A stretch of DNA of 52,394 nt from IMG/VR virus record IMGVR_UViG_3300044642_000273, positions 1 through 52,394 of that record; one strand, given 5' to 3'. Shown here piece after piece: positions 29,668 through 43,828 of this stretch. The notes beneath the pieces are model-generated. The model was not told the origin of the DNA. It made no database searches and was given only the letters and a program-made list of their open reading frames with translations. Made by a program: the position numbers and the translations under genes. Position 1 is the first letter of the stretch; each line of letters begins with the position of its first letter. This DNA comes from a virus. Taxonomy: Duplodnaviria; Caudoviricetes.

Positions 29668-30015
29668 ATGAAAAACTTTATTACTGTATCTCTTGATGGT
29701 TTAGGTAAATTCGTATTAACTGAAACTCGTTTAGTAGTTCAAAACACTGTTATTGTTGAAACCGATAATACAGCTGAATTAACTACAGCTATTTCTAATT
29801 TAACTGAATATAAACGTGCTCAGTTTACAGAAGACGCTAAAAGCGAATTTAAACGAATTGAAAAGGAAGCCAAAATGGCTAACAAACTTAAAAACGACGT
29901 AAAACGTCAAGAACGTGAAGCTAAGAAAGCAGAACGTAAACAAGCTCAAGAAGCTAAGCTAATCGAAAGAATGGCTAAACTTCAAGCACAACTTGAAAAA
30001 GTAAAATCAGCATAA
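29668..30015 (+). CDS. first early gene, basic coiled-coil C-terminus
   Basis: AAAGGA RBS; 115 aa; TAA stop lies in stem I of hammerhead 1. Confidence 0.75.
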   Translation: MKNFITVSLDGLGKFVLTETRLVVQNTVIVETDNTAELTTAISNLTEYKRAQFTEDAKSEFKRIEKEAKMANKLKNDVKRQEREAKKAERKQAQEAKLIERMAKLQAQLEKVKSA

Positions 30016-30061
30016 CTGATGAGTCCTTTATGGACGAAACTACCGAAAGGTAGTCTTATGC
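30010..30061 (+). ncRNA. hammerhead ribozyme 1 (type I)
   Basis: GCAUAA-CUGAUGA-GUCC(UUUAU)GGAC-GAAA-CUACC(GAAA)GGUAG-UC/UUAUGC; predicted cut after 30055. Confidence 0.95.
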
Positions 30062-30487
30062 ACAGAGTGAGCGAAAGCTAATACTTAACCTGCTATTATC
30101 GATTAAGAAGTACGATAAAATACGGGTATTATGAAAAATCAACGAGCAATACGTAATACTGTGGGTGCAAACACTAATCATGTTAGATTCAAGAGGAATG
30201 GACTTGTAAGACTATTCAAACCAAAGTATATGACTAGAGCATATGCAGTTAATTAGTATCTAGAAACTAATTCTTATCCATGAGAGTTCATGAGATCGTT
30301 CGTTATATCGAATCGTTAAAAGAATATAAACGGTTAAGTGGATATGCCGTTCTTACCACAGTAGAGTAATGCACTTAAAATCAGACGCATTCATCGAGCC
30401 AGTGATCTGCAGAACGATGTAAAAGTAATCGAACAGATCCGTTTTGAGGACAACGTAAAAGTCCTCACCAATTATAGTAAAGGAAAT

Positions 30488-30634
30488 ATGAATAAAATTA
30501 TATATAATGGACTTACACGTCCGCAAATGGTTTCTATGATTCACATGGAAACTGATACTTCATTCTGGTGCTACAAAGTGTCTGATGAAGAATTAATCGA
30601 AGGTTTTAAACAAATCTTTGGTACATCTAACTGA
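30488..30634 (+). CDS. small hypothetical protein (48 aa, not in the ORF track)
   Basis: AAGGA RBS, ATG 30488, MNKIIYNGL...FGTSN; TGA stop is inside the CUGAUGA core of hammerhead 2. Confidence 0.6.
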   Translation: MNKIIYNGLTRPQMVSMIHMETDTSFWCYKVSDEELIEGFKQIFGTSN

Positions 30635-30741
30635 TGAGTCCGTAAGGACGAAACCACCCAATATGAAATTCAACAAAACATCGTTGAGCGTATGCGACGA
30701 GCATCCCATTGGAGCTCCAAACTCCCAGAGTGGTCTTAGAT
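30625..30741 (+). ncRNA. hammerhead ribozyme 2 (type I) with 72-nt insertion in stem III
   Basis: AUCUAA-CUGAUGA-GUCC(GUAA)GGAC-GAAA-CCAC[72 nt]GUGG-UC/UUAGAU; predicted cut after 30735. Confidence 0.85.
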
Positions 30742-30755
30742 TAAAAGGAATTATT

Positions 30756-30968
30756 ATGAGTATTTATACAAGTGCATTAGCACGAATCGAAGAAGTAAAT
30801 CGATTAAACAAAAACTTAGGTCATAAAGACGAATGTGGAATTACTGAATCGAAAGATCCAGTCGGCGAAGTAGATCGCTCAGAAGCTGCTTACATTGTTA
30901 AGCGTGCTAAAGAGTTAGGTATTACTCCGTTTGAATTCATTATGAAACCTCTATCAGAGAAGAAATAA
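30756..30968 (+). CDS. hypothetical early protein
   Basis: ATG at 30756 behind AAAAGGA; shorter than the ORF-track call that runs through the ribozyme. Confidence 0.65.
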   Translation: MSIYTSALARIEEVNRLNKNLGHKDECGITESKDPVGEVDRSEAAYIVKRAKELGITPFEFIMKPLSEKK

Positions 30969-31092
30969 TGGATCACAGTAGTCCTAGTGTAACTGAAATT
31001 ATCGAATGGATAGCGACCATTGCGATGTGTACATCATTCTTTGTGATTACATCTTATATTATCGCTAAAATAATTTAATTAAAGGAAATATT

Positions 31093-31350
31093 ATGAAAAG
31101 AGACTATATTGCAGCTTACAATCAACTACAAAAGATCGGCGTTCCTGTATATGAGCATAGTGATGATAAAGGAAACTTTAGCATTGATGCAGAACATCCA
31201 GAATCGTATCTTTGGTGTGATTACTACGATGGTAGCTCCATCCCAGATTGGGACTTTGGCGTTAATCCAAAAATCGGACAAATCCTCTCAAAACGTGGAT
31301 TGTTCGCAGAATGGGTTAATCCAGGACGACTCGCTGTTTACATTATTTAA
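31093..31350 (+). CDS. hypothetical early protein
   Basis: AAAGGA RBS; 85 aa. Confidence 0.7.
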   Translation: MKRDYIAAYNQLQKIGVPVYEHSDDKGNFSIDAEHPESYLWCDYYDGSSIPDWDFGVNPKIGQILSKRGLFAEWVNPGRLAVYII

Positions 31351-31442
31351 AGTAAACGGAAAAGAGTATCACATACTTGCCTACGCTATGCAAATGGCGA
31401 ATGGCAAGGAAATAGAAATCATTAAACATAAAGGAAATTAAT

Positions 31443-31694
31443 ATGAACATGGAACAATTTAAAGAGTTGCAGCAGTATTATGCGCACGATCTATTTGACT
31501 TCGTCTATGGCGAAGGCTTATCATACGAGCTTTACGATAAACTATTTACCATCTATACCGAATCAGGTGAGATGCCTTATGGTGTCGCTAAAGCTCGAAC
31601 TGACGATCCATATACATGGATTGATGATCGCTTTACAGCGTTTATTGAGCAGAACAATCTGCAAGATGAATGTGCAATTGAAAACATTAATTAA
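31443..31694 (+). CDS. hypothetical acidic early protein
   Basis: AAAGGA RBS; GEMPYGVAKART.DP..WI motif. Confidence 0.7.
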   Translation: MNMEQFKELQQYYAHDLFDFVYGEGLSYELYDKLFTIYTESGEMPYGVAKARTDDPYTWIDDRFTAFIEQNNLQDECAIENIN

Positions 31695-31801
31695 GGAAAA
31701 CTTATGAAATATTATTTCGTATTACAAGATGGTTCAGTAGTGTTTGCAAAAACATACGTAGAGCTTAAAGATAAAATTAAACAATACATAGAAAGTAACT
31801 A

Positions 31802-31978
31802 ATGGAATTTATTACAGCACTTATAATCTTAGCAATTTTCGTAGTAGCGGTTATTGGTTATATCATGAACATTGTTAAACTTGTCAGATCTACAGAAATG
31901 ACAGGTAAAACTATTGCACGTGGAATTGGAATATTCTTCTTCCCATTGGGTGCAATCTTAGGTTATGTGTCTAACTGA
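31802..31978 (+). CDS. small membrane protein (58 aa, not in the ORF track)
   Basis: MEFITALIILAIFVVAVIGY...GIFFFPLGAILGYVSN; TGA stop lies in the core of hammerhead 3. Confidence 0.65.
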   Translation: MEFITALIILAIFVVAVIGYIMNIVKLVRSTEMTGKTIARGIGIFFFPLGAILGYVSN

Positions 31979-32019
31979 TGAGTCGGTAACGACGAAACCG
32001 TAGTGATACGGTCTTAGAC
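31969..32019 (+). ncRNA. hammerhead ribozyme 3 (type I)
   Basis: GUCUAA-CUGAUGA-GUCG(GUAA)CGAC-GAAA-CCGUA(GUGA)UACGG-UC/UUAGAC; predicted cut after 32013. Confidence 0.95.
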
Positions 32020-32043
32020 TAAAAGGAGTAGTAAACACTTATT

Positions 32044-32544
32044 ATGAAAAATAATATAAAAGTTGTTATATTGGCTACGTTGATCTTTTTATTAGGTTTG
32101 TTAATCGGTGTAATGATTAAACAAGAAAAAGAAGAGCCAATGATTGTAAAGCCTGTAACAACACAACAGTACGTGAAATACATACGACAAGAAGCTAAAA
32201 AGATCGGTTTAGATCCTGAATTAGCTCTTGCAGTGGCGATTACAGAAAGTGAATTGAACCCTGATGCTAGAAGTAAAGTAGGTGCTATTGGTATTATGCA
32301 AGTAATGCCGACAACTGCTAAATATCTAGGATTTGATCCACACGATCCTACAGAAAATATTAAAGGTGGCTTAGCTTACCTTAAATATCTTGTAGAAAAG
32401 TTTGGTGTAGAGCATGGTGTAGCAGCTTATAACGCTGGTCCAACCCGTATGCATAAAGTGCGTGCTGGTGCTTCAACAATGCCACGTGAAACTAAACACT
32501 ACATCAAGAAAGTAATCGCTAAGAAAAATGAATTAGAAGTTTAA
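32044..32544 (+). CDS. membrane-anchored lytic transglycosylase (SLT domain)
   Basis: N-terminal TM; ITES, GAIGIMQVMPTT, AAYNAGP, ET.HY motifs. Confidence 0.9.
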   Translation: MKNNIKVVILATLIFLLGLLIGVMIKQEKEEPMIVKPVTTQQYVKYIRQEAKKIGLDPELALAVAITESELNPDARSKVGAIGIMQVMPTTAKYLGFDPHDPTENIKGGLAYLKYLVEKFGVEHGVAAYNAGPTRMHKVRAGASTMPRETKHYIKKVIAKKNELEV

Positions 32545-32562
32545 TATTATAAAGGAAATAAA

Positions 32563-32709
32563 ATGGAAATGAAGTATTTAATTATCGCAATCGGTATAGT
32601 GTATTTACTAATTGGTATCGATCAGCTTCGCAAAGGAGCTGTTGGTAACTTTATTATTTATGCTGGATATGCGTTTAGTAACGTCGGCCTATTTATGATG
32701 GCCAAATAA
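32563..32709 (+). CDS. small membrane protein (48 aa, not in the ORF track)
   Basis: AAAGGA RBS; MEMKYLIIAIGIVYLLIG... hydrophobic. Confidence 0.6.
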   Translation: MEMKYLIIAIGIVYLLIGIDQLRKGAVGNFIIYAGYAFSNVGLFMMAK

Positions 32710-32860
32710 GATTGCCTGGTTGGAGCATCACGAAAGTGAAAACAACCTAGCGCTTATTCGCTCTACCCTTTGATCGGGTAAGCGCACGCTTTTGCATCTT
32801 GAGCGGAAAAATCAAGGTGCCATTTGGAATGCATTTTACACTAGAATGTATTCCCAATGA
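32705..32860 (+). ncRNA. candidate structured RNA element
   Basis: Four consecutive helical domains in an intergenic gap, including a GAAA-capped hairpin and G-U-containing stems; family not recognised. Confidence 0.4.
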
Positions 32861-32902
32861 CTCAACTATTACGTAAGTTATTGATTTTAATAAGGAAATT
32901 TT

Positions 32903-33250
32903 ATGAATATACAAGAAATGAGAGCCAACTTTCTAAATGGCAAATTATATGCAATGCATCATGCTTACTCAGACGTTAATCCGTATGAAGTATTACGAGT
33001 TGTAAGTGATAATTGTTTGGAGATACGTGCAATGGACCATGAAAATGATCCTAACGATATGCCAAAGTTTATAGCAGGTGGCTTTAGCGTCATTTGCACT
33101 CATTTTGGATCTCGAGTAATCACTTCAAATCCAAATAATCGTGTAATTCGTATTAGACGTAGAAAGAAAGATCCAAATAGATGGGTTCACAAAGGTATGA
33201 GATTTACCTTAGATGTAGAACCTCATGCTTATTACGATCATAATTTCTAA
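32903..33250 (+). CDS. hypothetical protein
   Basis: AAGGA RBS; 115 aa. Confidence 0.7.
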   Translation: MNIQEMRANFLNGKLYAMHHAYSDVNPYEVLRVVSDNCLEIRAMDHENDPNDMPKFIAGGFSVICTHFGSRVITSNPNNRVIRIRRRKKDPNRWVHKGMRFTLDVEPHAYYDHNF

Positions 33251-33367
33251 TATGATAATACTAATACTATTACTGGGTATTATGACCATCAACGTTATAC
33301 TAGCTTTTGTTTTACGCAAGTATAGCATTTATAAAGATTCAGATTTTAAAGGAAAAGATAAGAAATA

Positions 33368-33637
33368 ATGTATAATCAATTTAGAGAACATGTAAGATTT
33401 AAAGACTATGGCACTACTAGAGCAGAGCTAATCGAAGAGTTTAGAAAATTCTATGACGCTGATTTAGAGAAAGCCACTAAACAGTTTGAGTTTCATGAAG
33501 AGATGGCAGGACACAATTTCCTAGTTGTTGCAGTTACTAGACAACCAGTCAATTCTTTAGGACATCATACTATTGAGGTAACATTGGCACCAATAGACAA
33601 AGTAGATGATGATTTAATCTACCCGGAAGGAGACTAA
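33368..33637 (+). CDS. hypothetical protein
   Basis: 89 aa ORF abutting the ligase gene. Confidence 0.6.
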   Translation: MYNQFREHVRFKDYGTTRAELIEEFRKFYDADLEKATKQFEFHEEMAGHNFLVVAVTRQPVNSLGHHTIEVTLAPIDKVDDDLIYPEGD

Positions 33638-33638
33638 T

Positions 33639-34472
33639 ATGAGTGAATTTAAACTAATGTTAGCATCTGTATGTGATCCAGCAAAGCTTGTCTTTCCTAA
33701 ACTCGCATCACCAAAACTTGACGGTATTCGTTGCACCATTCGTAATGGCACTGCGCTAAGCCGTAACGGTAAACCTATTCGAAATAAGTTTGTGCAGTCC
33801 ATTATTGGTAACAATCACTTAAACGGATTGGATGGCGAACTTATGGTTGGCGATCCAACTGCAAGTGATGCTTTCCGTCAAGCAACGTCTGGCGTTATGT
33901 CAGAAGACGGTGAGCCAAAGTTTACGTTTATGGTGTTTGACTATTACCATTCAGACTTAGGCTTTAGTGACCGCTTACAGTTAGCGAAAGAGATGGTGCA
34001 AGACTTTGGCGTACCTAAATACGTAAAGATTGTGCCACATAAGAAAGTAAAAGACATCGCTCAGCTAGACGCTCTTGAAGAGAAATGGCTTGAAGATGGA
34101 TACGAAGGTGTTATGCTACGTTCATTAGATGGTCCATACAAACTTGGACGATCAAGCGTAACTGAAGGACATTTACTGAAAGTGAAACGCTTTAGCGATG
34201 CTGAAGCTACTATCGTAAGCTACGTAGAAGAAATCCATGGCAAAACACAATTGCCAAAGAATTCTTTAGGTAAGTTTATGTGCCGTACACCAGAAGGTAT
34301 TGTATTCGGTGTAGGTGGTGGATATAGCGCTAAAGAGCGCAAAGAGTTTTGGGAAAATCGAGATGCGATGATTGGACTTACGTTGAAGTATAAATACTTT
34401 ACTGTAGGTATGAAAGATGCTCCACGATTCCCGACATTCTTAGGTATTCGTGATGAAAACGATATGAGTTAA
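33639..34472 (+). CDS. lig: ATP-dependent DNA ligase
   Basis: KLDGIR adenylation motif, LDGEL, FD, EGVMLR, LKVK, PRFP.F. Confidence 0.95.
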   Translation: MSEFKLMLASVCDPAKLVFPKLASPKLDGIRCTIRNGTALSRNGKPIRNKFVQSIIGNNHLNGLDGELMVGDPTASDAFRQATSGVMSEDGEPKFTFMVFDYYHSDLGFSDRLQLAKEMVQDFGVPKYVKIVPHKKVKDIAQLDALEEKWLEDGYEGVMLRSLDGPYKLGRSSVTEGHLLKVKRFSDAEATIVSYVEEIHGKTQLPKNSLGKFMCRTPEGIVFGVGGGYSAKERKEFWENRDAMIGLTLKYKYFTVGMKDAPRFPTFLGIRDENDMS

Positions 34473-34518
34473 ACTGATGAGGCTTTAGTAGCCGAAACGC
34501 CGTGACGGCGTCTTTAAC
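34468..34518 (+). ncRNA. hammerhead ribozyme 4 (type I)
   Basis: GUUAAA-CUGAUGA-GGCU(UUAGU)AGCC-GAAA-CGCCG(UGA)CGGCG-UC/UUUAAC; predicted cut after 34512; ligase TAA lies in stem I. Confidence 0.95.
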
Positions 34519-34536
34519 ATTTTATAAAGGAATATT

Positions 34537-34923
34537 ATGGGATTAGATATGTTTGCGCATAGCGTCGCTAAAAATAACGCTATTGATGACCTCACTATGA
34601 CTAGTGATACTGACAGTCCACAAGATAACGTTGAAATTTTCTATTGGAGAAAACATCACGATTTGCATGGATGGATGAAAGAGCTATTTCATTCTAAAGG
34701 TGGTGAAGGTGAGTTTAATCTTCAACCTATTCGTCTTACATTAGATGATTTAGATAAACTCGAAGCAGCGGTGTTACAAAACACTCTACCTTTTACTACA
34801 GGAATGTTTTTCGGAAACAACCCGCCTGATGAAGAATCGCAGACGCGTGATTTAACGTTTATTGACAAAGCACGCTCACACATCTATGTTGGACGTGAAA
34901 TTTATTATAACTCTTGGTGGTAA
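34537..34923 (+). CDS. conserved phage hypothetical protein
   Basis: MGLDM...YWRKH..LHGWM...YYNSWW pattern; AAAGGA RBS. Confidence 0.75.
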   Translation: MGLDMFAHSVAKNNAIDDLTMTSDTDSPQDNVEIFYWRKHHDLHGWMKELFHSKGGEGEFNLQPIRLTLDDLDKLEAAVLQNTLPFTTGMFFGNNPPDEESQTRDLTFIDKARSHIYVGREIYYNSWW

Positions 34924-34925
34924 TC

Positions 34926-35156
34926 ATGGAAAAATGGCTTACCTTAACCAAATGGTTAGGAACTATTTTGTGTCTAACAGGTATAGCACTTACTAGCTTC
35001 AACATTTATCCGTTAAATATTGTACTAAGCCTTATAGGCAGCTTACTATGGACAGTGGCAGGATTCCTTCAAAAGGATCCTCCATTAATCTTAGTAGAAG
35101 CAGCTGCGGTTGGGCTTTACTTTATTGGTATAATTACTTATTTAGGAACATTATGA
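34926..35156 (+). CDS. small membrane protein
   Basis: Three hydrophobic segments; probable ATG at 34926. Confidence 0.65.
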   Translation: MEKWLTLTKWLGTILCLTGIALTSFNIYPLNIVLSLIGSLLWTVAGFLQKDPPLILVEAAAVGLYFIGIITYLGTL

Positions 35157-35410
35157 AAAAATTTAAGATAGGAGATTTAGTCGCTGTAAACACTTTACCT
35201 GATTGCCAAGTATATCATCTATACGAGCAACATCAGAGAAATAAGTTTATGTTTTATCTAACTTACTACTCAAATGGGAAGTTGTGCGGCGGAGGTTGGT
35301 TAGACGTTAGCGCTTTTCGCGAACCGTCAAAGGATCAACTTAAAAACTACATAGCTACATCGCTGCCTGAAATCGGCGTATCTGCTACTGAAGATGCAGT
35401 AACAAATTAA
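35153..35410 (+). CDS. hypothetical protein
   Basis: Probable start MKKFKIGD at 35153 overlapping the upstream stop (ATGA). Confidence 0.6.
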   Translation: MKKFKIGDLVAVNTLPDCQVYHLYEQHQRNKFMFYLTYYSNGKLCGGGWLDVSAFREPSKDQLKNYIATSLPEIGVSATEDAVTN

Positions 35411-35427
35411 TTTATAAGGAAAACATT

Positions 35428-35889
35428 ATGAAAGAAAATAAATTGGCTCAAATGCCAGCAGGTAAGTATTGGATTGGTGACTTGTGTTATGTAATGCACG
35501 ATAATTGGGATGAGTTTTGCCAAAAAGCTTACGACAGTGAAACTGGTAAAGACAACAATGGTCTTATGGTTCTCAATAACGGCACCAAAGTCGCATGGTT
35601 TAACACTAAGTGGGGCGATGGACTCTATCGCGATACCAGAGGTAATAGGTATCCTGTAGACGCAGGTCTTATTGGGTGCATAAAGATGAACGACATCGAC
35701 TTTGACCATCCGCATAACGATCTACTTGGAGGCAATATAGTCTCATTCAAAGAAGATTTCGAATGTGGATATGAAAATGGTCTTATTTGGTTTGGTCATG
35801 GCAAAGACTCAGTTGAAATTCAAACTGACGATATGTATGGCGAAGACGAAGAGGAAGAAGACGAAGATTACGAACAATCTTATAACTAA
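35428..35889 (+). CDS. conserved phage hypothetical protein with acidic tail
   Basis: YWIGDLCYVM, T.WGDG.Y, VDAGLIG motifs. Confidence 0.7.
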   Translation: MKENKLAQMPAGKYWIGDLCYVMHDNWDEFCQKAYDSETGKDNNGLMVLNNGTKVAWFNTKWGDGLYRDTRGNRYPVDAGLIGCIKMNDIDFDHPHNDLLGGNIVSFKEDFECGYENGLIWFGHGKDSVEIQTDDMYGEDEEEEDEDYEQSYN

Positions 35890-36070
35890 GGAAAAAACAA
35901 ATGGACATTATTGCACAACGTGAAAGAATGCGTAATCGCAAAAAAGTATTAACAGAGCAAGTTAAGACATTGTTAGCACAAGAAGAGTATGACGATTACG
36001 TTGTTGCTCTTGCTAAAGGAAGAGTGTTTGAACTTGAAGAACAGTATTATGAATTATTTGGAGAAGATTT

Positions 36071-36397
36071 ATGAAATCTAATAAACAACGAACAGAAAAC
36101 TGGGTCGCTACTCTACCTACACTCACCTCGCCAGAAGACCAAATGGCCTTAGCAGCCATTAAGTCGTCTGTAAAGGCTATCAACATGCAAAATGCGCATC
36201 ACGATCACTTAGCTTATGGCAAAGGGTGGAGAAGTTATAAGCGTTTCGATGCTGATTGTAACGAGCGCCGCTTACCTCGCTATCGCGTCACCATTAGAGC
36301 GCGTGGTCCAGTTGATGGACATAAGTATGGATGGGGCGGGTATCTCAAACTCGCTGGTGGTAGCCGCTTTGACATCTACATTCACGAAAGACGCTAA
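36071..36397 (+). CDS. hypothetical protein
   Basis: GGAG RBS; 108 aa. Confidence 0.6.
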   Translation: MKSNKQRTENWVATLPTLTSPEDQMALAAIKSSVKAINMQNAHHDHLAYGKGWRSYKRFDADCNERRLPRYRVTIRARGPVDGHKYGWGGYLKLAGGSRFDIYIHERR

Positions 36398-36591
36398 TGA
36401 CTAAATTTATCGTAGTGGAAACAACTAAAGAAAATAAAGATCGTAAACTCGCTGTAAAAGACTCTTTAGCTGAAGCTATGAAAGAGCAAAAGAAACAGCG
36501 AAAGCTAGTGCCTGATACTTCAGCTGTCAGTATTGCTGAGAAAGACACTTACGATTTTATTCAAAAGCATAACAAGAAAAAGTCAAACTGA
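36397..36591 (+). CDS. small basic hypothetical protein
   Basis: TAATG overlap with the upstream gene; TGA stop lies in the core of hammerhead 5. Confidence 0.65.
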   Translation: MTKFIVVETTKENKDRKLAVKDSLAEAMKEQKKQRKLVPDTSAVSIAEKDTYDFIQKHNKKKSN

Positions 36592-37305: not shown

Positions 37306-37784
37306 ATATTTTCTACTTAGCAGCAGATCCGTATGTGGCAGCATCTATGCATTGTGATAAACACGTTTGTAAAATGATTATTGAAACAGCACAAATGTTG
37401 TCATCAGTGCAAGCAAGGTATGGATCAGACAATACTCCTTACAAACCTACTCACGTAAAACATCCATCAACGTTATGGGCAGGTGATTCTGCTTCTAACT
37501 ATAAATGGCTAGTGAGCTTAGGTAAAGGCTTATGTAATGAATACACTAGACGGTATGGCAAAATCCATAAGACGCAAGAGATTATAGACAAATTGTCGGA
37601 ATCTCCTGATGGTCTACCGGATGTTGGATATACTAAGATGCCACAGTGTATGCCTGAAGAGTATAAGACTGAAGATTCTATTACTGCTTATCGTAATTAT
37701 TACATTGCTGATAAAATGCGATTTGCAAAATGGAAATATACAGAAACACCAGCATGGTGGCCAAGTGTAACTGAAGAGGCTTGA
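37302..37784 (+). CDS. pyrimidine-dimer DNA glycosylase / endonuclease V-like family protein
   Basis: MNIFYL, HCDKHV.KMI.E.AQMLS, YKPTH..HP, EY..RYGK.H, AYR.YY motifs. Confidence 0.7.
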   Translation: MNIFYLAADPYVAASMHCDKHVCKMIIETAQMLSSVQARYGSDNTPYKPTHVKHPSTLWAGDSASNYKWLVSLGKGLCNEYTRRYGKIHKTQEIIDKLSESPDGLPDVGYTKMPQCMPEEYKTEDSITAYRNYYIADKMRFAKWKYTETPAWWPSVTEEA

Positions 37785-37815
37785 ATAGCCGAAACGCCGA
37801 GATGGCGTCTTACAC
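37765..37815 (+). ncRNA. hammerhead ribozyme 6 (type I, CUGAAGA core)
   Basis: GUGUAA-CUGAAGA-GGCU(UGAAU)AGCC-GAAA-CGCC(GAGAU)GGCG-UC/UUACAC; predicted cut after 37809. Confidence 0.93.
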
Positions 37816-37832
37816 ATTATTAAAGGAGGAAG

Positions 37833-39389
37833 ATGAGTACAGTAAAAGAAAAGTTGTACGTCCTTCGACGTGAAAAATCGGTCTTAGAGGCCGACTTGCG
37901 ATCTCTAAAAGCGAGACGTGAGAATGCCAAGCGCGCTAACAGACAGGCTATTGACGTAGGTCCTGATCCGTTTTACTATCGCGTAGGTATGGACTTTCGC
38001 GGTCGCCTTTACTATAAAGGTGCCCACTTAAATCCACAAATGGGTGATGATGTAAAGGTAGTATTGACGTTAGCCAATAAGAAACCTCTAGGCACTAATG
38101 GACTCCATTGGTTATGTTGGGGAGTCGCTTCTGCGGCTGGCTACGATAAAGCCGCTTTTGGTGCACGTGTTACATACACTCGTGAGCATTTGCAAGAGAT
38201 ACGTAAGGCAGTAGAAGACCCATCAACATCAGATTATTTTATAAACACTGTGATGAAAGATGGTGAGCCTGCGCTATTTCTTCAACGCGCTAATGAGTTG
38301 ATTAATGCGATAGATAGTGGTGATAGCGCTTCATACGAGACTGATGTAACGATCGCTATGGACGCTACATGCTCTGGTTTGCAGATTCTATCAGCAGTCG
38401 CTAAGGATCGTCAAGGTGGTAGTTTAGTAAACATCACTGAAACTCCTGAAACGCAGACTGAAAAGGCTGATGTGTATGGCACAGTTGCAAAACTAATCTT
38501 GAAGAAGTATTCACAACTTCCAGAAAACTATTTTGCACAATGGGTAATTCTAAATGGAATACCTCGAAGATTTACTAAGCGTCCTGTTATGACATTACCT
38601 TATTCAGCTACTATTCGTAGTGCTATCGGTTATGTCCAGACAGAGTTGCAAGGTAATTCAGAAAAAGGTATTGCACCTTATCCTTTACCACCATCAGAAG
38701 AAGATAGACGACGTTTACAACTATCAATTAAATCTCTAATGGGTAAAGAAGAATCAGGCGAAGTAAAGTTGGACGATAATTCACTTTATTACGGTATGGC
38801 AACTCTTATTGCGCGTGACATTCACGGCGTATGTAGAGAAACTATTCCTGCCGCAATGACTCTTCTTGAATTCTTTAAATCTACACCAAAGAAGTTATAC
38901 GATCACGCTATTTGGAATACTCCTGATGGCTTATATGTAAAACAGCGCTATGGCGTTGAAGAAGAGAGTCGTACTAAGTATACGCTAACATGGGTAGACC
39001 AAGATACTGGTGAGATTTGCCAGAAACTTATCCAACGTAGATATGCGTATATCGACCCAAGTGATAGAGATAGAAGTAAAGCGTCTAACGGTATGCCTCC
39101 TAATTGGGTGCACTCTTTAGATGGCACATTAGTGCGTAGAGTTATGCTAAGCGCTCCTTTTGAGATTATCGCCATCCATGATTCATTCGCTGCACATCCT
39201 GCAGACTGTGATGATTTGGCTAGAATCTTACGTGAGCAATTCGTATGGATCGTTGAGCAAGAGCCTTTGCAACGCTTAATCGATCAGCTTAACGCGCAAG
39301 TTGGAGAAGAGGTCTTTAAGTCAGAGCCACTTATGTTAAATACGTGGAATCCTAAAGAAGCCTTAAACTCTGAATTTCTATTTTGTTAA
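37833..39389 (+). CDS. T7-like RNA polymerase, C-terminal (catalytic) subunit
   Basis: DFRGRLY, DATCSGLQ (motif A), R-x3-K-x7-YS (motif B), PNWVHSLDG, IHDSF (motif C), C-terminal FLFC; lacks the N-terminal domain. Confidence 0.95.
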   Translation: MSTVKEKLYVLRREKSVLEADLRSLKARRENAKRANRQAIDVGPDPFYYRVGMDFRGRLYYKGAHLNPQMGDDVKVVLTLANKKPLGTNGLHWLCWGVASAAGYDKAAFGARVTYTREHLQEIRKAVEDPSTSDYFINTVMKDGEPALFLQRANELINAIDSGDSASYETDVTIAMDATCSGLQILSAVAKDRQGGSLVNITETPETQTEKADVYGTVAKLILKKYSQLPENYFAQWVILNGIPRRFTKRPVMTLPYSATIRSAIGYVQTELQGNSEKGIAPYPLPPSEEDRRRLQLSIKSLMGKEESGEVKLDDNSLYYGMATLIARDIHGVCRETIPAAMTLLEFFKSTPKKLYDHAIWNTPDGLYVKQRYGVEEESRTKYTLTWVDQDTGEICQKLIQRRYAYIDPSDRDRSKASNGMPPNWVHSLDGTLVRRVMLSAPFEIIAIHDSFAAHPADCDDLARILREQFVWIVEQEPLQRLIDQLNAQVGEEVFKSEPLMLNTWNPKEALNSEFLFC

Positions 39390-39397
39390 GGAGTTAC

Positions 39398-40285
39398 ATG
39401 AATTTACATCAAAGAGAGATTGAATTAGAGAATGCTAAGTTGGCAAAGGATCGCCACTTAGAGATTCGTCAGAAACTTGACTCTATTTCAATCGAATTCT
39501 CGAAAGAGATTATTGACTTAAGCTTTCACATTGATAAATGGAGAAAGGTAGATAGAAAACCTAGAGAAGTTGAAAGACTAGCTTATGCTAGCTTGTTAAA
39601 TAAAGTGCCTTCTATCGTTCTAGCAGAAAACGTTGTTCGTGCTTTATTCGAATCATACATTAACGTAGACATTGGAGCACCTTTAACGTATGCTACTGTT
39701 GTTAACAATAAGTTAATTCAGCAGAGATTACGTAGTTTACTTCCTAACGAGGAAACAGCAATACCGATACAGTTTAAATTCTCTTTAGTAGATTTACTAG
39801 TATCCCGTACTGTTAGATATCTTCCTTCATTATTTATCGATGTTGAAAGTAGAAAACTTGGTACTCCAGACTCCATCGAACTCACAAAAGTCGCAAAAGA
39901 GCGTTTAGGCAAGATTTCTATTCAGGAATTGTTAACTGACGTTCCAATGAGATGCAAACCTGCGAAATGGACTTCAGTATTTCATGGTGGTTTCTTAACA
40001 TCAGAAATGCAGCGTGGAAATCCACTGATTGGGTCTCGTTATCACGATTATAAAGAATTGATTGAAATCGATAAGTCTTTGCAAAGTAATCCTGAAATTT
40101 TAGAATCTGTAAATAAAATGCAAAACGTAGCATTTAAAATCGATCCTAACTTTCAGAAATATCAAAAGATTATTGATGATATTCGAAAATCGAAGATAAA
40201 AGAGATTCAAACTCAAATCGACAAGAAGCGAGAAGAGATTTCACGATGTGAAAAGGAGTTAGATTTGAGTATCCCTATTAGATAG
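39398..40285 (+). CDS. T7-like RNA polymerase, N-terminal subunit
   Basis: HQREIELE, IELT, PMRCKPAKW....GGF, VNKMQNVAFKID match T7 RNAP N-terminal motifs (QLALEHE, IELA, PCVVPPKPW...GGGY, INIAQNTAWKIN); ATG 39398 behind AAGGAG. Confidence 0.82.
   Translation: MNLHQREIELENAKLAKDRHLEIRQKLDSISIEFSKEIIDLSFHIDKWRKVDRKPREVERLAYASLLNKVPSIVLAENVVRALFESYINVDIGAPLTYATVVNNKLIQQRLRSLLPNEETAIPIQFKFSLVDLLVSRTVRYLPSLFIDVESRKLGTPDSIELTKVAKERLGKISIQELLTDVPMRCKPAKWTSVFHGGFLTSEMQRGNPLIGSRYHDYKELIEIDKSLQSNPEILESVNKMQNVAFKIDPNFQKYQKIIDDIRKSKIKEIQTQIDKKREEISRCEKELDLSIPIR
40265..40278 (+). promoter_or_regulatory. TTGAGTATCCCTAT, candidate phage-RNAP promoter for the replication genes
   Basis: 14-bp identity with the two minus-strand repeats at 28993 and 29172; about 50 nt upstream of the SSB start. 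Confidence 0.5.
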
Positions 40286-40329
40286 ACCATACGGGATATC
40301 TAGTTTTTAACTTATGGAGAATAGCCAAG

Positions 40330-40884
40330 ATGGCAAAACTAAAAACTGCAATTACACCGAAAGGTACTTTATCATGGCCATACATTGGTCGTCCTGATAC
40401 AAGATACAATCCTGAAGGTGTCTATAAGACCAGCTTAATTGTACCGGCAGCTGAAGCCGAATCGCTGATGGAAACATGCAAACAGATGTTTATTGATGAG
40501 TATGGTAATGCCAAACTCGCCAAAGCGAACATGCCTTTCTCACCTGAAGTCGATGACCAAGGTAACGAAACAGGCAACATCGTGTTTAAGTTTAAATCTA
40601 AACGACAGCCAAAACTGTATGACGCTAAAGGTAAAGTAATTACTAAAAACCTTCAAGTTGCATCAGGCACAGTGGCTAAAGTCGCTACAGCGATTAATCC
40701 TTACGCTACAGGTATCAACGTTGGTGTTTCACTTTATTTGAACGACGTTCAGATTATCGAGTTAGTAGAATACGGCAAAGGCAGCCTATTCGGACAAGAA
40801 GATGGTTTCGAGTTCGACGACGATGGTGAGCCTAACGAACCTTCTACTACTGGATCGAAGAGTGAAGAAAACGCGGACTTCTAA
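40330..40884 (+). CDS. single-stranded DNA-binding protein (T7 gp2.5-like)
   Basis: TPKG...P....PD...P.G.YK, FKFK, P..YDAKG, GVSL.L..VQIIELVE, acidic tail ending in DF. Confidence 0.9.
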   Translation: MAKLKTAITPKGTLSWPYIGRPDTRYNPEGVYKTSLIVPAAEAESLMETCKQMFIDEYGNAKLAKANMPFSPEVDDQGNETGNIVFKFKSKRQPKLYDAKGKVITKNLQVASGTVAKVATAINPYATGINVGVSLYLNDVQIIELVEYGKGSLFGQEDGFEFDDDGEPNEPSTTGSKSEENADF

Positions 40885-41269
40885 GCAAGTTGGAATTTAT
40901 CACGGATTTCGAAGTGGTCTTGAGGAACGCATAGCGGAGCAATTGACAACGCTTAACGTTCCTTTCACCTTTGAAGAGGTCAAGATAAAGTATGTGAAAC
41001 CTCAACGATCTGCTACCTATTGTCCGGATTTTATCCTGTCGAATGGTATCATCGTTGAGACTAAAGGTCGTTTCCTAACGGCTGATAGACAAAAGCACAT
41101 ACTGATTAAAGAGCAGCATCCTGAGTTGGACTTACGTTTTGTATTTAGTAACTCAAATGCACGTATCTCTAAGACTTCGAAAACTACATACGCAGATTGG
41201 TGTATTAAAAATGGGTTTGTCTTTGCAGATAAACTTATTCCAATCGAATGGATAAACGAAACACGCTAA
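40862..41269 (+). CDS. endonuclease I / Holliday junction resolvase (T7 gp3-like)
   Basis: FRSGLE, Y.PDF.L.NGIIVETKG, DRQKH.LIKEQHPELD.RFVF; start uncertain (GTG 40862). Confidence 0.93.
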   Translation: MKKTRTSKQVGIYHGFRSGLEERIAEQLTTLNVPFTFEEVKIKYVKPQRSATYCPDFILSNGIIVETKGRFLTADRQKHILIKEQHPELDLRFVFSNSNARISKTSKTTYADWCIKNGFVFADKLIPIEWINETR

Positions 41270-41279
41270 GGAGAATACG

Positions 41280-42899
41280 TTGATTGAAAATGAAGAGTCG
41301 AGATTCCTAAGACACGAATCCTGCGACAGTTGCGGATCGAGCGACGCTAAGGCAGTTTATTCGAATGGATCGACCTTTTGCTTCGCTTGTCAAGTTTCTA
41401 CTCGCAGTGAAGGTGGCAAAACTAAGGTGATGAATAACACATCTCCTTCTCTTGCACCATTCTTTGACGCTCAAATAGAGCCACTCGCCGCTAGAGGTAT
41501 TTCCGAAGCGACTTGTAAACGGTTTGGCGTACGTAAAGGTGATTTAAATGGACGTAATGTCCACTTCTATCCTTACGTTGTAGATGGTGAAGTAGTTGCC
41601 GCTAAGACTAGAGATAAAGACAAAAACTTCAAGATTATTGGAGATGGAAAAGACTTACCATTCTTTGGTCAGCATCTTACTCCTAATCCAAGTGATAAAC
41701 TTACTTTAGTTGTTACTGAAGGTGAGATCGATGCGCTATCTATGTCTCAGATTATGGGAAATAAATGGCCTGTTGTATCTATTCCACAAGGAGCTCAAGG
41801 CGCCATAAAAACTTTTAGAAGCCAAATTGAATGGCTAGATAAGTTTAAAGATGTTGTTATCATGTTTGATAATGATGGTGCTGGTAGAGATGCCGCTCTG
41901 AAATGTGCTGAAGTATTACGACCTGGTAAAGCCAGAATCGCTTCACTTCCGCTCAAAGACGCCAACGAAATGTTGATGGCTGAGCGTACTGAGGAGTTGA
42001 TGAAGGCGTTTTGGGACGCTAAGCACTTCCGTCCGGATGGTATTCTATCTGGAAATGAGTTGTGGGAATCTGTATCACGTGAAGAGTCTACCATCACAGT
42101 AGAGTATCCTTTCTCGAAACTAAATGAAACTACTTTAGGTATTCGTAGAGGTGAGCTAGTGACTGTTACGGCAGGCTCAGGTATTGGTAAGTCAGCGTTT
42201 ATGCGAGAAATCGCGCATCATTTACTTTCACTAGGTGAGACAGTGGGTATGGTGATGTTAGAAGAAAATCCTAGACGAACTGCATTAGGTCTTATGGGAT
42301 TATCTTTGAATAAACCTTTGCACTTATCTCGTGACGGTGTATCTAATGAAGAGTTACGCAAAGCGTTTGATGACACATTAGGCACCAATCGTGTATTCTT
42401 ATACGATCACTTTGGTAGTACGGAAGTAGATTACCTTATGAATAAATTAAGGTATATGGTAAAAGGTTTACAGTGTAATTGGTTGATTCTTGACCACCTA
42501 TCCATTCTTGTATCAGGATTGGAAGGCGTAGATGAGCGTAGACTTATCGATCAAGCAATGACTATGTTACGTACCTTTGTTGAAGAAACAGGTTGTGGAT
42601 TGTTGTTAGTAAGCCATTTACGACGGCCAGATGGAAAAGGCCATGAAGAAGGAGCTGCTACATCACTATCACAATTGCGTGGATCACATGCCATCGCTCA
42701 ACTCTCTGACATTGTAGTCGGTTTAGAGCGTAATCAACAAGGTGACAATCCTAATGAAACTCAAATTAGAGTATTAAAGAATCGTTTCTCTGGTCAAACT
42801 GGAGAAGCTGGTAAACTTTACTTTAATCGAGAGACAGGACGATTGACTGAAACATTTACTATGGCACCTGAAACATTCACAGCAAGTTCGGATTTTTAA
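41280..42899 (+). CDS. primase-helicase (T7 gp4-like)
   Basis: Cys4 zinc finger (C..CGSSD...CF.C), TOPRIM EGEID and FDND, AGSGIGKS Walker A, LDH, LRGS..IAQLSD, KNRF.G.TG. Confidence 0.96.
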   Translation: MIENEESRFLRHESCDSCGSSDAKAVYSNGSTFCFACQVSTRSEGGKTKVMNNTSPSLAPFFDAQIEPLAARGISEATCKRFGVRKGDLNGRNVHFYPYVVDGEVVAAKTRDKDKNFKIIGDGKDLPFFGQHLTPNPSDKLTLVVTEGEIDALSMSQIMGNKWPVVSIPQGAQGAIKTFRSQIEWLDKFKDVVIMFDNDGAGRDAALKCAEVLRPGKARIASLPLKDANEMLMAERTEELMKAFWDAKHFRPDGILSGNELWESVSREESTITVEYPFSKLNETTLGIRRGELVTVTAGSGIGKSAFMREIAHHLLSLGETVGMVMLEENPRRTALGLMGLSLNKPLHLSRDGVSNEELRKAFDDTLGTNRVFLYDHFGSTEVDYLMNKLRYMVKGLQCNWLILDHLSILVSGLEGVDERRLIDQAMTMLRTFVEETGCGLLLVSHLRRPDGKGHEEGAATSLSQLRGSHAIAQLSDIVVGLERNQQGDNPNETQIRVLKNRFSGQTGEAGKLYFNRETGRLTETFTMAPETFTASSDF

Positions 42900-42916
42900 C
42901 TTTATTGGAGAATTAA

Positions 42917-43186
42917 ATGTCAACACAATTATACTTTGCAGTAAAAGCAATTAAAGAAAACAAAAACGGCGCTACTTCGCAACACTTAGCGAAATACGGT
43001 ATCAAGAATGCCTCAGCCGTAATCTCAACACTACGCAAACGTGGCCACACTATTGTGACACAATTCGTAACCAAGAATGGTCAACGTGTTGGTAAATATT
43101 TGATGCCTTTTGGCACACGTACTGAAGAAGCAAAACTTACTAAAACAGCTCGTAAGGCAATTGCCAAGGAGTTTGGGTTAGCATAA
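42917..43186 (+). CDS. small basic winged-helix-like DNA-binding protein
   Basis: GI.N.SA.IS.LRK.GH.I pattern; GGAG RBS. Confidence 0.6.
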   Translation: MSTQLYFAVKAIKENKNGATSQHLAKYGIKNASAVISTLRKRGHTIVTQFVTKNGQRVGKYLMPFGTRTEEAKLTKTARKAIAKEFGLA

Positions 43187-43241
43187 ATGTAACTTATTAT
43201 ATACAAAATAGCATGTTTATGTATATTATATGATACAATCA

Positions 43242-43301
43242 GTCTGACTGATGAGCCTTAAATAGGCGAAACCGCCACTCGGGAGAGTCGCGGTCTCAGA
43301 C
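43242..43301 (+). ncRNA. hammerhead ribozyme 7 (type I)
   Basis: GUCUGA-CUGAUGA-GCCU(UAAAU)AGGC-GAAA-CCGC.ACUC(GGGA)GAGU.GCGG-UC/UCAGAC; predicted cut after 43295. Confidence 0.93.
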
Positions 43302-43371
43302 ACTCAAAACTATATCGATAAACTGAATCGAATCCTCCTGTAGTTTTAACATCCAATAGGAGTTAAATACT

Positions 43372-43782
43372 ATGAGCATTAAATCGCAAATTATTATGTC
43401 AAGCCGAGAGCATTACAAGGCTCACATTCGTAAACATGTCACTAACATCAACGCAATTCTTGCTAATCCAATCGCTATTCCTGAGCACACAGACATCATG
43501 GACTCGGTTGAAAAAGAACTGTTTGTCATTAGTGAATACGAAAGCAAATTACAAGCATTAGACAAATACATTAAAGATGAGTCTGATGATAATGGTAATA
43601 ACGGCAACAATGGTAATGGCAACGGTGGTAATAATGGAAACAACGGTAATAATGACACAAGCACTACTACCGAATCTTCTACAACTACCGAGACTAATGA
43701 GACTTCAACCACTCAACAAGAAGCCACCATTACAGTCGGTGCAGGCTCTCATTTAACTATTGAGAGACCTTTTACAGTCTAA
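43372..43782 (+). CDS. helical protein with Asn/Gly- and Thr/Glu-rich low-complexity tail
   Basis: AGGAG RBS; TAA stop lies in stem I of hammerhead 8. Confidence 0.7.
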   Translation: MSIKSQIIMSSREHYKAHIRKHVTNINAILANPIAIPEHTDIMDSVEKELFVISEYESKLQALDKYIKDESDDNGNNGNNGNGNGGNNGNNGNNDTSTTTESSTTTETNETSTTQQEATITVGAGSHLTIERPFTV

Positions 43783-43828
43783 CTGATGAGTCCTACATGG
43801 ACGAAACCGTAGTGATACGGTCTTAGAC
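43777..43828 (+). ncRNA. hammerhead ribozyme 8 (type I)
   Basis: GUCUAA-CUGAUGA-GUCC(UACAU)GGAC-GAAA-CCGUA(GUGA)UACGG-UC/UUAGAC; predicted cut after 43822. Confidence 0.95.

Follow-up and report, generated by a model that had tools for sequence, protein, structure and literature searches.

Eight type I hammerhead ribozymes at gene borders in the early/replication module of a lake phage, a probable array for transcript processing

We have found exactly eight type I hammerhead ribozymes (HH1–HH8), spanning 13.8 kb, on the + strand of the window, by which we mean the whole 52,394-nucleotide stretch of phage DNA analysed. The eight are probably active (we put the probability at about 0.65) and would split the rightward early/replication mRNAs of this lake phage into separate mRNAs. 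The long transcripts, their cleavage in vivo and all consequences for stability and translation are what we infer; none of the RNA runs searched for the window sequence carries it. The elements are listed here with their scores in a covariance model built from the eight.

HH1, 30010–30061, + strand: type I; cut after 30055 (GUC); 73.4 bits; MFE structure is the hammerhead fold, z −4.5; TAA stop of ORF 29668–30015 in the stem I 5' strand; 75-nt leader to ATG 30131.
HH2, 30625–30741, + strand: type I with an insertion of ~70 nt in stem III; cut after 30735; 52.2 bits; stop of ORF 30488–30634 is the UGA of the CUGA core; 20-nt leader to ATG 30756.
HH3, 31969–32019, + strand: type I; cut after 32013; 70.3 bits; stop of ORF 31802–31978 is the core UGA; 30-nt leader to the SLT-domain gene 32044–32544.
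HH4, 34468–34518, + strand: type I with a weak, AU-rich stem I; cut after 34512; 67.4 bits; TAA stop of the DNA ligase gene 33639–34472 in stem I; 24-nt leader to ATG 34537.
HH5, 36582–36632, + strand: type I, GUA site; cut after 36626; 70.0 bits; stop of ORF 36397–36591 is the core UGA; 66-nt leader with a 7-bp hairpin and a 12-mer at 36667.
HH6, 37765–37815, + strand: type I, core CUGAAGA; cut after 37809; 69.5 bits; ORF 37302–37784 stops in the stem II loop; 23-nt leader to the gene for the RNA polymerase catalytic part at 37833.
HH7, 43242–43301, + strand: type I; cut after 43295; 64.8 bits; 55 nt past ORF 42917–43186, downstream of the primase/helicase gene; 76-nt leader to gene 43372.
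HH8, 43777–43828, + strand: type I; cut after 43822; 76.1 bits; TAA stop of gene 43372–43782 in stem I; 75-nt leader to the DNA polymerase gene 43898.

All eight share the sequence CUGA(U/A)GA, a 4-bp stem II, GAAA, stem III and a 6-bp stem I; the core positions are intact in every copy and the cleavage site is GUC everywhere except in HH5. Stem III of HH7 is longer, with 4 bp, a C-C mismatch, a further 4 bp and a tetraloop. At the position of HH2, a variant from a lake metagenome (run X4) has a short stem III. The spacings between successive predicted cuts are 680, 1278, 2499, 2114, 1183, 5486 and 527 nt. A strict type I descriptor gave eight matches on the + strand and none on the − strand, against a mean of 0.005 in 200 dinucleotide shuffles of the window, and a chance origin of the eight elements is excluded. 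The covariance model, run with filters off, scores the eight between 52.2 and 76.1 bits, a range that is circular for its own copies; its informative part is the rest of the window, without matches (the next is at 13.5 bits, E 0.2). Descriptor and model thus bear out the sequence-only reading, which had placed eight complete type I hammerheads at these coordinates, all on this strand, and its motifs, stem I sequences, cut positions and piece lengths are confirmed, with the arithmetic right. A search with Rfam model RF00163 agreed in part: HH8 alone is above threshold (36.9 versus 34 bits), and the other seven are either below the curated threshold (HH3 28.6, HH1 27.8, HH2 20.8 and HH5 12.4 bits) or, in the case of HH4, HH6 and HH7, not among the matches listed for the window. 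MFE folding returned the three-way hammerhead junction in seven of the eight, the exception being HH4, where stem I is absent from the MFE structure.

The stem sequences had also been said to differ between copies with pairing kept, and compensatory changes measured against 500 shuffles bear this out. Among HH1–HH8, pairing is kept in 98.4% of 125 cells, and both partners have changed in 11 of 16 pairs; on four of five measures no shuffle reached the observed covariation (0/500), and on the fifth, the count of pair types, 10/500 did so. When the hammerheads of two related genomes (G001 and G002) are added to those of the window, giving 19 elements, 99.3% of 297 cells are paired, 72 cells have changes on both sides compared with 16.9 in shuffles, and sliding one strand lowers pairing to 29–40%. 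All 19 match the model over their full length and have a like core, in which the seventh position varies among U, A and C. The analysis adds to earlier work a covariation of loop II type with the bases flanking stem I, which is no more than a hint of the tertiary contacts on which rapid cleavage at cellular Mg2+ levels depends.

The elements sit at gene junctions, as had been claimed, and in seven of the eight window copies the stop codon of the upstream ORF lies inside the element. From cut to start codon, the leader is short behind HH2, HH3, HH4 and HH6 (20, 30, 24 and 23 nt, so that the earlier claim of four cuts 20–30 nt before start codons, including that of the RNA polymerase, was right) and long behind HH1, HH5, HH7 and HH8 (75, 66, 76 and 75 nt). 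The short leaders carry AAGGA/GGAG-type motifs; the long ones show only a modest gain in folding over shuffles (z −0.4 to −2.5). The region, read earlier as an early/middle transcript of a phage, is an early/replication module with T7-like replication genes, encoding a ligase, a split RNA polymerase, a gp2.5-like SSB, an endonuclease, a primase/helicase, a DNA polymerase and an exonuclease; no integrase was seen in the window. Terminator-like sites within the array number 15, no excess over the 10.1 ± 3.4 in shuffles. A 12-mer, AAGTTATTGATT, occurs in six exact copies and looks like a promoter element:

29206–29361, + strand: four tandem copies, starting at 29206, 29244, 29313 and 29350, at the head of the + strand module.
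32875–32886, + strand: fifth copy, inside the array, ahead of ORF 32903–33250.
36667–36678, + strand: sixth copy, 41 nt past the HH5 cut and 15 nt before ATG 36693.

Because two of these promoter-like 12-mers lie inside the array, the cuts alone probably do not define the pieces, and initiation instead of cutting may account for some of the 5' ends.

In the processing model, the ribozymes would be transcribed within the rightward early/replication mRNAs, and each would fold on emerging from the polymerase and cleave at its GUC or GUA, between that triplet and the 3' strand of stem I. With the cut 3' of the whole ribozyme, the upstream mRNA would retain its stop codon, and its 3' end would consist of two compact hairpins, stems II and III, and a 2',3'-cyclic phosphate. 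The downstream mRNA would begin with a 5'-OH, six bases formerly of stem I and a short leader with a ribosome-binding site. The outcome would be separate mRNAs of one to several genes, translated and degraded independently of their neighbours. Against this model, the long stem III insertion of HH2 may slow folding, stem I of HH4 is predicted to be marginal, and where a stop codon lies inside stem I a terminating ribosome would compete with folding.

The source is an uncultured lake phage. Its closest cultured relative found, Ralstonia phage DU_RP_I, has a primase 58% identical to that of the window, and neither it nor T7 gave a hammerhead match. Other relatives carry hammerheads: eight in G001, three in 10.4 kb of G002, two in G003, and three, three and two matches in L146, L120 and L149, with primase identities to the window of 77%, 59% and 63%. 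In G001 (primase 79% identical), four of the eight are at matching junctions, namely before the RNA polymerase, after the primase block and after the homologues of ORFs 29668–30015 and 31802–31978. The G001 element at 13314–13362 is at the HH6 junction, that at 18963–19022 differs from HH7 by one base, and the best candidate upstream ORF ends inside the element or at most 3 nt before it in all eight cases. Arrays on one strand also occur in IMG/VR contigs with no replication genes in common with the phage (seven elements in 5.3 kb of L177, five in L168, four in L105); at most of their elements an ORF ends on or beside the ribozyme and the next starts a few tens of nucleotides later.

Comparison with G001 also locates a gene cassette that is bounded by hammerheads:

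43302–43828, + strand: leader, gene 43372–43782 (136 aa) and HH8 body; absent in G001.

In G001 a single element stands at this place, with the body of HH7 and, behind it, the leader found after HH8 in the window, which puts the breakpoint at the 3' end of the hammerhead. In L120, a homologue of gene 43372–43782 again lies between two hammerheads, relocated directly behind the RNA polymerase gene and not before the DNA polymerase gene. Hammerhead borders are exactly where gene cassettes are gained and lost, an addition to the published picture. One alternative is that hammerheads are mainly module borders, whose shared 15–30 nt let cassettes of leader, gene and ribozyme swap, insert and vanish by recombination; self-cleavage would then be the insulation that permits expression of a new gene anywhere, and the array would record cassette traffic more than designed processing. 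Several further observations point the same way. The last 29 nt of HH3 and HH8, 11.8 kb apart, are identical (repeat family D11), and the G001 element at the HH1 junction has the stem III of HH3 and HH8. Small early genes are much reshuffled between the window and G001, with eight hammerheads in both. Contigs from other lake samples join at the borders (30058 to 30756 and 30058 to 30494 in X10; 32021 to 32551 in X5, skipping the SLT gene directly behind HH3), although such joints, taken from short metagenome contigs at 85% likeness, can stem from other phages or repeats. Against it, synteny with G001 is also broken at many places away from hammerheads, the base-by-base analysis covers one cassette, and the full catalytic core kept in every copy is unexplained unless cleavage is selected. 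As an account of the array we consider it possible though rather unlikely; since core retention needs selected cleavage, it complements the processing model.

A less probable alternative, which we regard as doubtful, is that cleavage serves to down-regulate or time expression. Host 5'–3' exonuclease would attack the 5'-OH end, or a stabilising 5' triphosphate would be lost, so that genes behind a ribozyme were expressed less or more briefly, with ribozyme speeds (those of HH4 and HH2, for example) setting the doses. A precedent comes from Bacillus subtilis, where RNase J1 breaks down the 5'-OH product of the glmS ribozyme. The copies do vary in predicted stability and architecture, and regulated cleavage is raised for phage hammerheads in the available text of Perreault et al. 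(PMC3088659). The genes directly behind ribozymes include, however, those of the essential RNA and DNA polymerases, with good ribosome-binding motifs 20–75 nt away, which fits expression better, and the elements have no apparent ligand-binding or switching structure. Both this outcome and any protection by the 5'-OH end depend on the RNases of the host.

It is very improbable that segments between two ribozymes, once released, become circular or spliced RNAs through an RtcB-type ligase. Seven segments do have a ribozyme at either end, the established chemistry of RtcB suits the 5'-OH and cyclic phosphate termini, and the possibility was raised by Perreault et al. (PMC3088659). The segments are, however, ordinary coding blocks of 0.5–5.5 kb with stop codons, an RNA ligase or end-healing enzyme is absent among the 29 + strand proteins searched, and the same authors report, as data not shown, that they sought spliced or circular products and found none (PMC3088659). 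That the matches are chance hits or decayed, inactive relics is barely credible despite seven of eight scoring under the RF00163 threshold, with eight on one strand against 0.005 expected per window, cores intact in all printed copies and pairs kept through compensatory change across the 19 elements.

The preferred reading, active hammerheads that process the transcript, would give the ribozymes the task that host RNase III performs at T7 hairpins, in cis, with one catalyst per transcript and no host enzyme. In T7, the RNA at the junctions on either side of gene 1 and ahead of gene 4.7 folds into strong hairpins. Matching junctions are occupied by HH6, in front of the RNA polymerase gene, and by HH7/HH8, in the stretch from the primase/helicase block to the DNA polymerase gene. 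That the ribozymes may replace RNase III is an analogy drawn from these positions. The names of the T7 RNase III sites reportedly go back to Dunn and Studier in 1983. The T7 sites (PMC4858673) resemble the window in their co-transcriptional intergenic cuts in a long early/middle transcript (predicted in our case), in an upstream product that ends in a hairpin and in often lying beside promoters; in T7 a host protein cuts double-stranded hairpins and leaves 5'-phosphate and 3'-OH ends. In the window, by contrast, the RNA is predicted to cut itself and to leave 5'-OH and 2',3'-cyclic phosphate ends.

Synthetic insulators of the RiboJ type place a hammerhead between variable upstream sequence and the ribosome-binding site and so strip the upstream context, and some designs add a hairpin past the cut, as in the long leaders of the window. 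These parts are engineered, single and derived from a type III satellite-RNA hammerhead, whereas the window has natural type I elements repeated along an operon.

The closest likeness is to prophages. According to the available text of Perreault et al. 2011 (PMC3088659), multiple hammerheads flank genes or short gene blocks there, and their proposed role is to cut long phage transcripts into gene- or operon-length mRNAs; prophage triple hammerheads were shown to cut at every site in vitro, and one of them was also seen to cleave in E. coli. The one-strand arrangement around genes or blocks and the proposed role are the same as in the window. The tested cases are triplets in ~2 kb of bacterial chromosomes, whereas the window has eight over 13.8 kb with T7-like replication genes, all of type I; their stem I is 6 bp long throughout, and the upstream stop codon forms part of the ribozyme. 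The haloarchaeal viruses HF1 and HF2 likewise have a ribozyme a few nucleotides before the start of an early replication (helicase) gene, and in HF2 a transcript 5' end lies within 3 nt of the hammerhead cut; unlike the window they carry a single core-variant ribozyme that requires high Mg2+, in an archaeal virus and without an array (PMC3088659). With that work and the IMG/VR arrays of four to seven elements, the earlier suggestion that such an operon-wide array may not have been described was too strong. The interpretation is, as far as the available text of PMC3088659 goes, only partly new; the feature itself is real, a large and clear-cut case of a layout reported for the first time in 2011, from prophages.

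A search with the hammerhead core pattern returned 15 matches in the window against 4.5 expected, with eight core matches on the + strand in the elements HH1 to HH8 listed below. A strict type I descriptor found eight on the + strand and none on the − strand; in 200 shuffles that preserve dinucleotides the mean was 0.005 per window. HH1-HH8 were used to build a covariance model (hereafter our model), which, applied to the window with every filter disabled, scored them at 52.2-76.1 bits and everything else at 13.5 bits or less. Thus, there are exactly eight copies and no decayed ones. The sequence-only reading had placed eight ribozymes here, and pattern search, descriptor and model all agree with it; its stems, cut positions and fragment sizes were all correct on recheck. 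The feature is real and was accurately described.

Hammerhead elements of the window: coordinates, strand, name, core match, location of the upstream stop codon, and leader length
30010-30061, + strand: HH1; core match at 30016; stop in the 5' strand of stem I; leader 75 nt
30625-30741, + strand: HH2; core match at 30631; stop is the UGA of the CUGA core; leader 20 nt
31969-32019, + strand: HH3; core match at 31975; stop is the UGA of the CUGA core; leader 30 nt
34468-34518, + strand: HH4; core match at 34474; stop in the 5' strand of stem I; leader 24 nt
36582-36632, + strand: HH5; core match at 36588; stop is the UGA of the CUGA core; leader 66 nt
37765-37815, + strand: HH6; core match at 37771; stop in the loop of stem II; leader 23 nt
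43242-43301, + strand: HH7; core match at 43248; begins 55 nt 3' of its upstream ORF; leader 76 nt
43777-43828, + strand: HH8; core match at 43783; stop in the 5' strand of stem I; leader 75 nt

The catalytic core, defined for type I as CUGANGA, GAAA, a stem III closed by an A-U pair and any base but G at the cleavage site, is intact in all eight copies, and the same core is found in 11 additional elements from G001, a relative with a primase 79% identical, and G002, a further related IMG/VR record. At the variable core position seven copies have U and HH6 has A; all cleavage sites are GUC except that of HH5, which is GUA. Every copy has a 6-bp stem I, a 4-bp stem II with a loop of 4 or 5 nt, and a stem III. 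Stem I is open, stems II and III are closed by loops, and the predicted cut falls immediately before the 3' strand of stem I, as in the type I topology. The minimum free energy structure is the hammerhead junction in 7/8; that of HH4 includes stems II and III but lacks the AU-rich stem I.

That the stems differ between copies with pairing kept was borne out by the covariation. Standard pairs fill 98.4% of 125 cells in the eight copies, against 29-38% in slid-strand controls, and double-sided changes occur in 11 of 16 pairs. On four of five covariation measures none of 500 shuffles reaches the observed value, and on the fifth, the pair-type count, 10 do. When all 19 distinct elements from the window, G001 and G002 are taken together, 99.3% of 297 cells are paired (slid controls 29-40%) and 72 cells are changed on both sides, against 16.9 in shuffles. 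All three helices around the core are backed by compensatory changes, as expected of a hammerhead.

Irregular double-stranded hairpins of the RNase III type do not describe these elements, which are three-way junctions with a hammerhead core, and an Rfam scan of the window for other ribozyme classes at E <= 10 gave hammerhead-clan and chance snoRNA-type matches only. In the suggested check with Rfam hammerhead models, HH8, at 36.9 bits, passes the RF00163 threshold of 34, and the other seven are either below it (HH3 28.6, HH1 27.8, HH2 20.8 and HH5 12.4 bits) or unlisted (HH4, HH6 and HH7). The copies unlisted for RF00163 show weak matches to related hammerhead models only, and the RAGATH-1 hammerhead model matches HH7 (27.0 bits) and HH1 (26.6 bits) weakly against a threshold of 56.3 bits.

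The record is linear, 41% complete by CheckV and has a GC content of 41%. Its terminase, portal, head, tail and T7-like replication genes identify it as a phage, and the genes fall into two modules on opposite strands.

Gene features of the window
124-29150, − strand: module with terminase, portal, major head and tail-fibre genes
16532-18319, − strand: ribonucleotide reductase large subunit
21820-23787, − strand: 655-aa ORF adjoining the terminase gene, with a weak match to phrog_414 (C-terminal part of the phage RNA polymerase family; E 6e-9)
29668 to window end, + strand: module of small early genes followed by a T7-like replication set, which includes a gp2.5-like SSB, an endonuclease and an exonuclease
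32044-32544, + strand: first of two SLT-type transglycosylase genes, directly 3' of HH3
33639-34472, + strand: ATP-dependent DNA ligase
36693-37031, + strand: HNH endonuclease
37833-39389 and 39383-40285, + strand: single-subunit RNA polymerase (RNAP), in two genes
41280-42899, + strand: primase/helicase
43898-45697, + strand: family A DNA polymerase (DNAP)
46951-48147: PHROG match to alpha-glucosyltransferase
48423-48929, + strand: second SLT-type transglycosylase gene
49116-49595: HslV-like peptidase
50780-51178: PHROG match to dCMP deaminase

The RNAP is split into two genes with their order swapped (37833-40285, +). The first (518 aa) resembles T7 RNAP from about residue 411 on, with the best stretch at 411-578, and its residues 84-496 are spanned by the Pfam RNA_pol domain; the second (300 aa) aligns weakly to T7 RNAP residues ~270-369. 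The same two-gene order is found in G001 and in the IMG/VR locus L146. Judging from its weak family match, the ORF at 21820-23787 may be a second, divergent RNAP for the leftward late genes, and the alpha-glucosyltransferase and dCMP deaminase matches possibly point to DNA base modification. The ORF at 29668-30015 was considered as an Ocr-like anti-restriction gene and rejected, being basic (pI 9.6) and without a family match. No tRNA in the window exceeds the Rfam threshold; G001 has a tRNA gene (locus L100, 11936-12007, 53.4 bits). Three copies of a 20-nt repeat family of the TAACTGAATAT type, with further related TAACTGG motifs, lie on the + strand at 29512-29811, just 5' of and within the first + strand gene, and these may be regulator sites or an origin.

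All eight ribozymes lie on the + strand within 13.8 kb, between + strand ORFs, so that the claimed placement on the coding strand at gene borders holds; several coding-strand copies flanking genes or short blocks is the arrangement of clustered phage hammerheads. In 7/8 the stop codon of the upstream ORF is within the ribozyme itself. Because of the type I topology, the predicted cut is 3' of the entire ribozyme, and the upstream product would retain its stop and end with stems II and III. On the predicted downstream product, six stem I bases come first and then the leader. The short leaders (HH2, HH3, HH4 and HH6) carry a motif of the AAGGA/GGAG type, and several of the long ones (HH1, HH5, HH7 and HH8) start with a hairpin, a weak signal with z of -0.4 to -2.5.

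The best reading of these features is that the eight elements are probably active ribozymes cutting rightward transcripts at gene borders, a published idea of which the window would be a larger and tidier case. Rightward transcripts would cut themselves at the eight borders, leaving the upstream message with a structured 3' end bearing a cyclic phosphate and the downstream message with a short 5'-OH leader and an exposed ribosome-binding site. We infer effects on stability and translation, the direction of which would depend on the host.

Other signals of transcription were sought in the same region. The region 28800-46000 shows no enrichment of terminator-like sites (15 against 10.1 ± 3.4), and those on the + strand fall within ORFs. 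A sigma-70-type promoter scan was uninformative (56 against 52.9 in shuffles). A 12-mer is present in six exact copies, all on the + strand (29206, 29244, 29313, 29350, 32875 and 36667), with four in tandem spanning 29206-29361 at the head of the early module, where they recall the tandem early promoters annotated in T7. The copy at 36667 is 41 nt 3' of the predicted HH5 cut, and diverged copies are found in the leader behind HH8, before the DNAP gene, and in the matching G001 leader. The 12-mers look like candidate promoter elements. If so, some fragments would start from initiation, and some ribozymes would end one unit just before the next promoter. The window or part of it is contained in 22 sequencing runs, none of them on record as RNA.

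Some relatives of the phage also carry hammerheads. Our model (E <= 0.01, default filters) was run on 80 loci fetched from IMG/VR with the primase/helicase, and it matched four: L006, with a primase gene identical to that of the window, L008 (79%), and L009 and L010 (both 68%). The remaining 76 gave no match; among them are L007, a 4.2-kb fragment with 81% identity, and all those no more than 58% identical. G001, the 66.8-kb record behind L008, has at least 8 hammerheads, all on the coding strand, and G002 at least 3 in 10.4 kb; such whole-record counts are lower bounds, since the first-look filter used for them loses copies (4 matches for the record of locus L177, against 7 by cmsearch on the locus). 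By protein comparison, four G001 ribozymes lie at junctions matching HH1, HH3, HH6 (before the RNAP) and HH7 (after the primase block). Its other ribozyme junctions differ from those of the window, and extensive reshuffling separates the small early genes of the two. A motif scan added three clade members: L146 (3 hammerheads, primase 77% identical), L149 (2, 63%) and L120 (3, 59%).

An Rfam scan at gathering thresholds found nothing in five hammerhead-free relatives (L011, L012, L013, L014 and L016); the same scan also took in L099, L100 and L009, and its two matches, a tRNA and a hammerhead, both lie in G001. Against GenBank phages there was no megablast match to 29500-44500 and no blastn match to HH8 at E <= 1. 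The best cultured primase/helicase match found is Ralstonia phage DU_RP_I (58% identical). Our model found nothing at E <= 1 in the whole of T7 or DU_RP_I, an empty result that is weak evidence, by a search route that recovered 8 in G001.

Arrays also occur in more distant phages. An IMG/VR scan for one version of the core and stem II gave at least 120 stretches, and in the 80 loci listed our model made 93 matches. Among the matches listed, at least seven loci have three or more hammerheads, always on one strand: L177 has 7 in 5.3 kb (6752-12067), L168 has 5 (1042-3366), L105 has 4 (2403-3881), and L120, L146, L170 and L129 have 3 each. Five whole records were searched, and each has at least 4-7. 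L177, L168 and L105 have no replication genes in common with the window and a GC content of 36-48%. Their arrays part nearly every gene over 1.5-5.3 kb, mostly with the end of an ORF on or adjoining the ribozyme and the next ORF a few tens of nucleotides later.

The descriptor was applied to the window, L099, L009 and L101-L180, giving 93 distinct type I hammerheads, a set biased by the fetching motif. In 78 of the 93, stem I measures exactly 6 bp. Within these 78, a U-N-N-A-U loop II goes with A on both sides of stem I (32/32) and a G-N-R-A loop II with C/U and U flanking stem I (7/7). This covariation of loop and flank suggests a tertiary contact between loop II and the end of stem I. Natural hammerheads that cleave fast at cellular Mg2+ need a contact of this kind.

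Where the window has HH7 and HH8, between the primase block and the DNAP gene, G001 carries one hammerhead only, with a body one base away from HH7 and followed by a leader homologous to the one behind HH8. Relative to G001, the window and L146 thus have one unit more ('leader, gene 43372-43782, HH8 body'), and the joint falls precisely on the 3' end of a hammerhead. In L120 a homologue of gene 43372-43782 is also between two hammerheads, but after the RNAP gene. HH3 and HH8 have an identical 29-nt 3' half, and the SLT gene at 32044-32544 has no counterpart at the matching place in G001.

Contigs from four lake sequencing runs (X3, X4, X5 and X10; DNA only) were compared over 29500-44500. Some of their joints begin or stop at hammerhead borders, although these are short contigs at 85% likeness and are to be read with care; one joint in X5, from 32021 to 32551, omits the SLT gene directly after HH3. 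Contig depth is several-fold higher in most bins that hold a hammerhead, reaching 408.6 in X4 at 36600 against 1-7 in most other bins, indicating that more abundant phages of those lakes have ribozymes like these. HH2 also occurs in one lake variant whose stem III is short.

The cassette evidence suggests that the hammerheads are also module borders, a role compatible with processing; if killing the cores were to change nothing, it would gain weight. More broadly, the type I hammerhead could be the standard connector of a modular gene system ('leader, gene, ribozyme') in the lineage of the window and several unrelated ones. It would have the stop built in, would give host-independent processing with one catalyst per transcript in place of the RNase III hairpins of T7, and would offer a conserved border for cassette exchange between phages. 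We put this forward tentatively, with a probability of about 0.3. If true, phages would possess a natural plug-and-play insulator system, and the hammerheads of bacteria and phages would gain a defined biological role. If the role in processing and insulation holds by itself, it would explain a widespread phage feature and supply natural, mutually different insulator parts for synthetic operons.

Processing by multiple hammerheads is already in the literature. In the part of Perreault et al. (2011, PMC3088659) considered here, multiple hammerheads in prophages often flank single genes or short blocks, the implied role being to cut long phage transcripts into mRNAs of operon or gene length. That part also reports full in vitro cleavage for three 'tandem' arrangements, cleavage of a triple arrangement from Agrobacterium in E. 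coli, and no circular or spliced products. The corresponding part of a 2019 review (Weinberg, Weinberg and Hammann, PMC6765202) has the same idea and calls the purpose of hundreds of bacterial and phage hammerheads still undefined, noting that 'additional work is needed'; that of a 2021 method paper describes the detection in Desulfovibrio of three type II hammerheads, active and close to phage-like genes (PMC8782182). In our literature search no paper brought hammerhead, ribozyme and Autographiviridae together, and none dealt with hammerheads in transcriptomes of phage infection or followed them during infection. The supposed novelty is therefore narrower than first proposed. The kind of array was described before, as that part of PMC3088659 makes plain, and arrays as large as this one may be in its figures or supplements; the scale, the T7-like context, the embedded stops, the cassette borders and the loop-flank rule are new.

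In the parts of PMC4858673 considered, RNase III in T7 infection is scarce, is boosted by a phage kinase and is dispensable under standard conditions. The sequence-only reading had the ribozymes replacing this enzyme. The T7 junctions corresponding to HH6 and to HH7/HH8 fold as strong hairpins, and this match supports the analogy that the elements work like the RNase III sites of T7; replacement itself is not established by it. The sites of the window match the presumed places of these T7 sites, which the T7 record does not annotate, and the elements are alike to them in position and presumed role only. With eight intact copies, a gene order comparable with that of T7 and a relative that shows which sites are kept and which are cassette-borne, the window is one of the cleanest natural cases for work on phage hammerheads.
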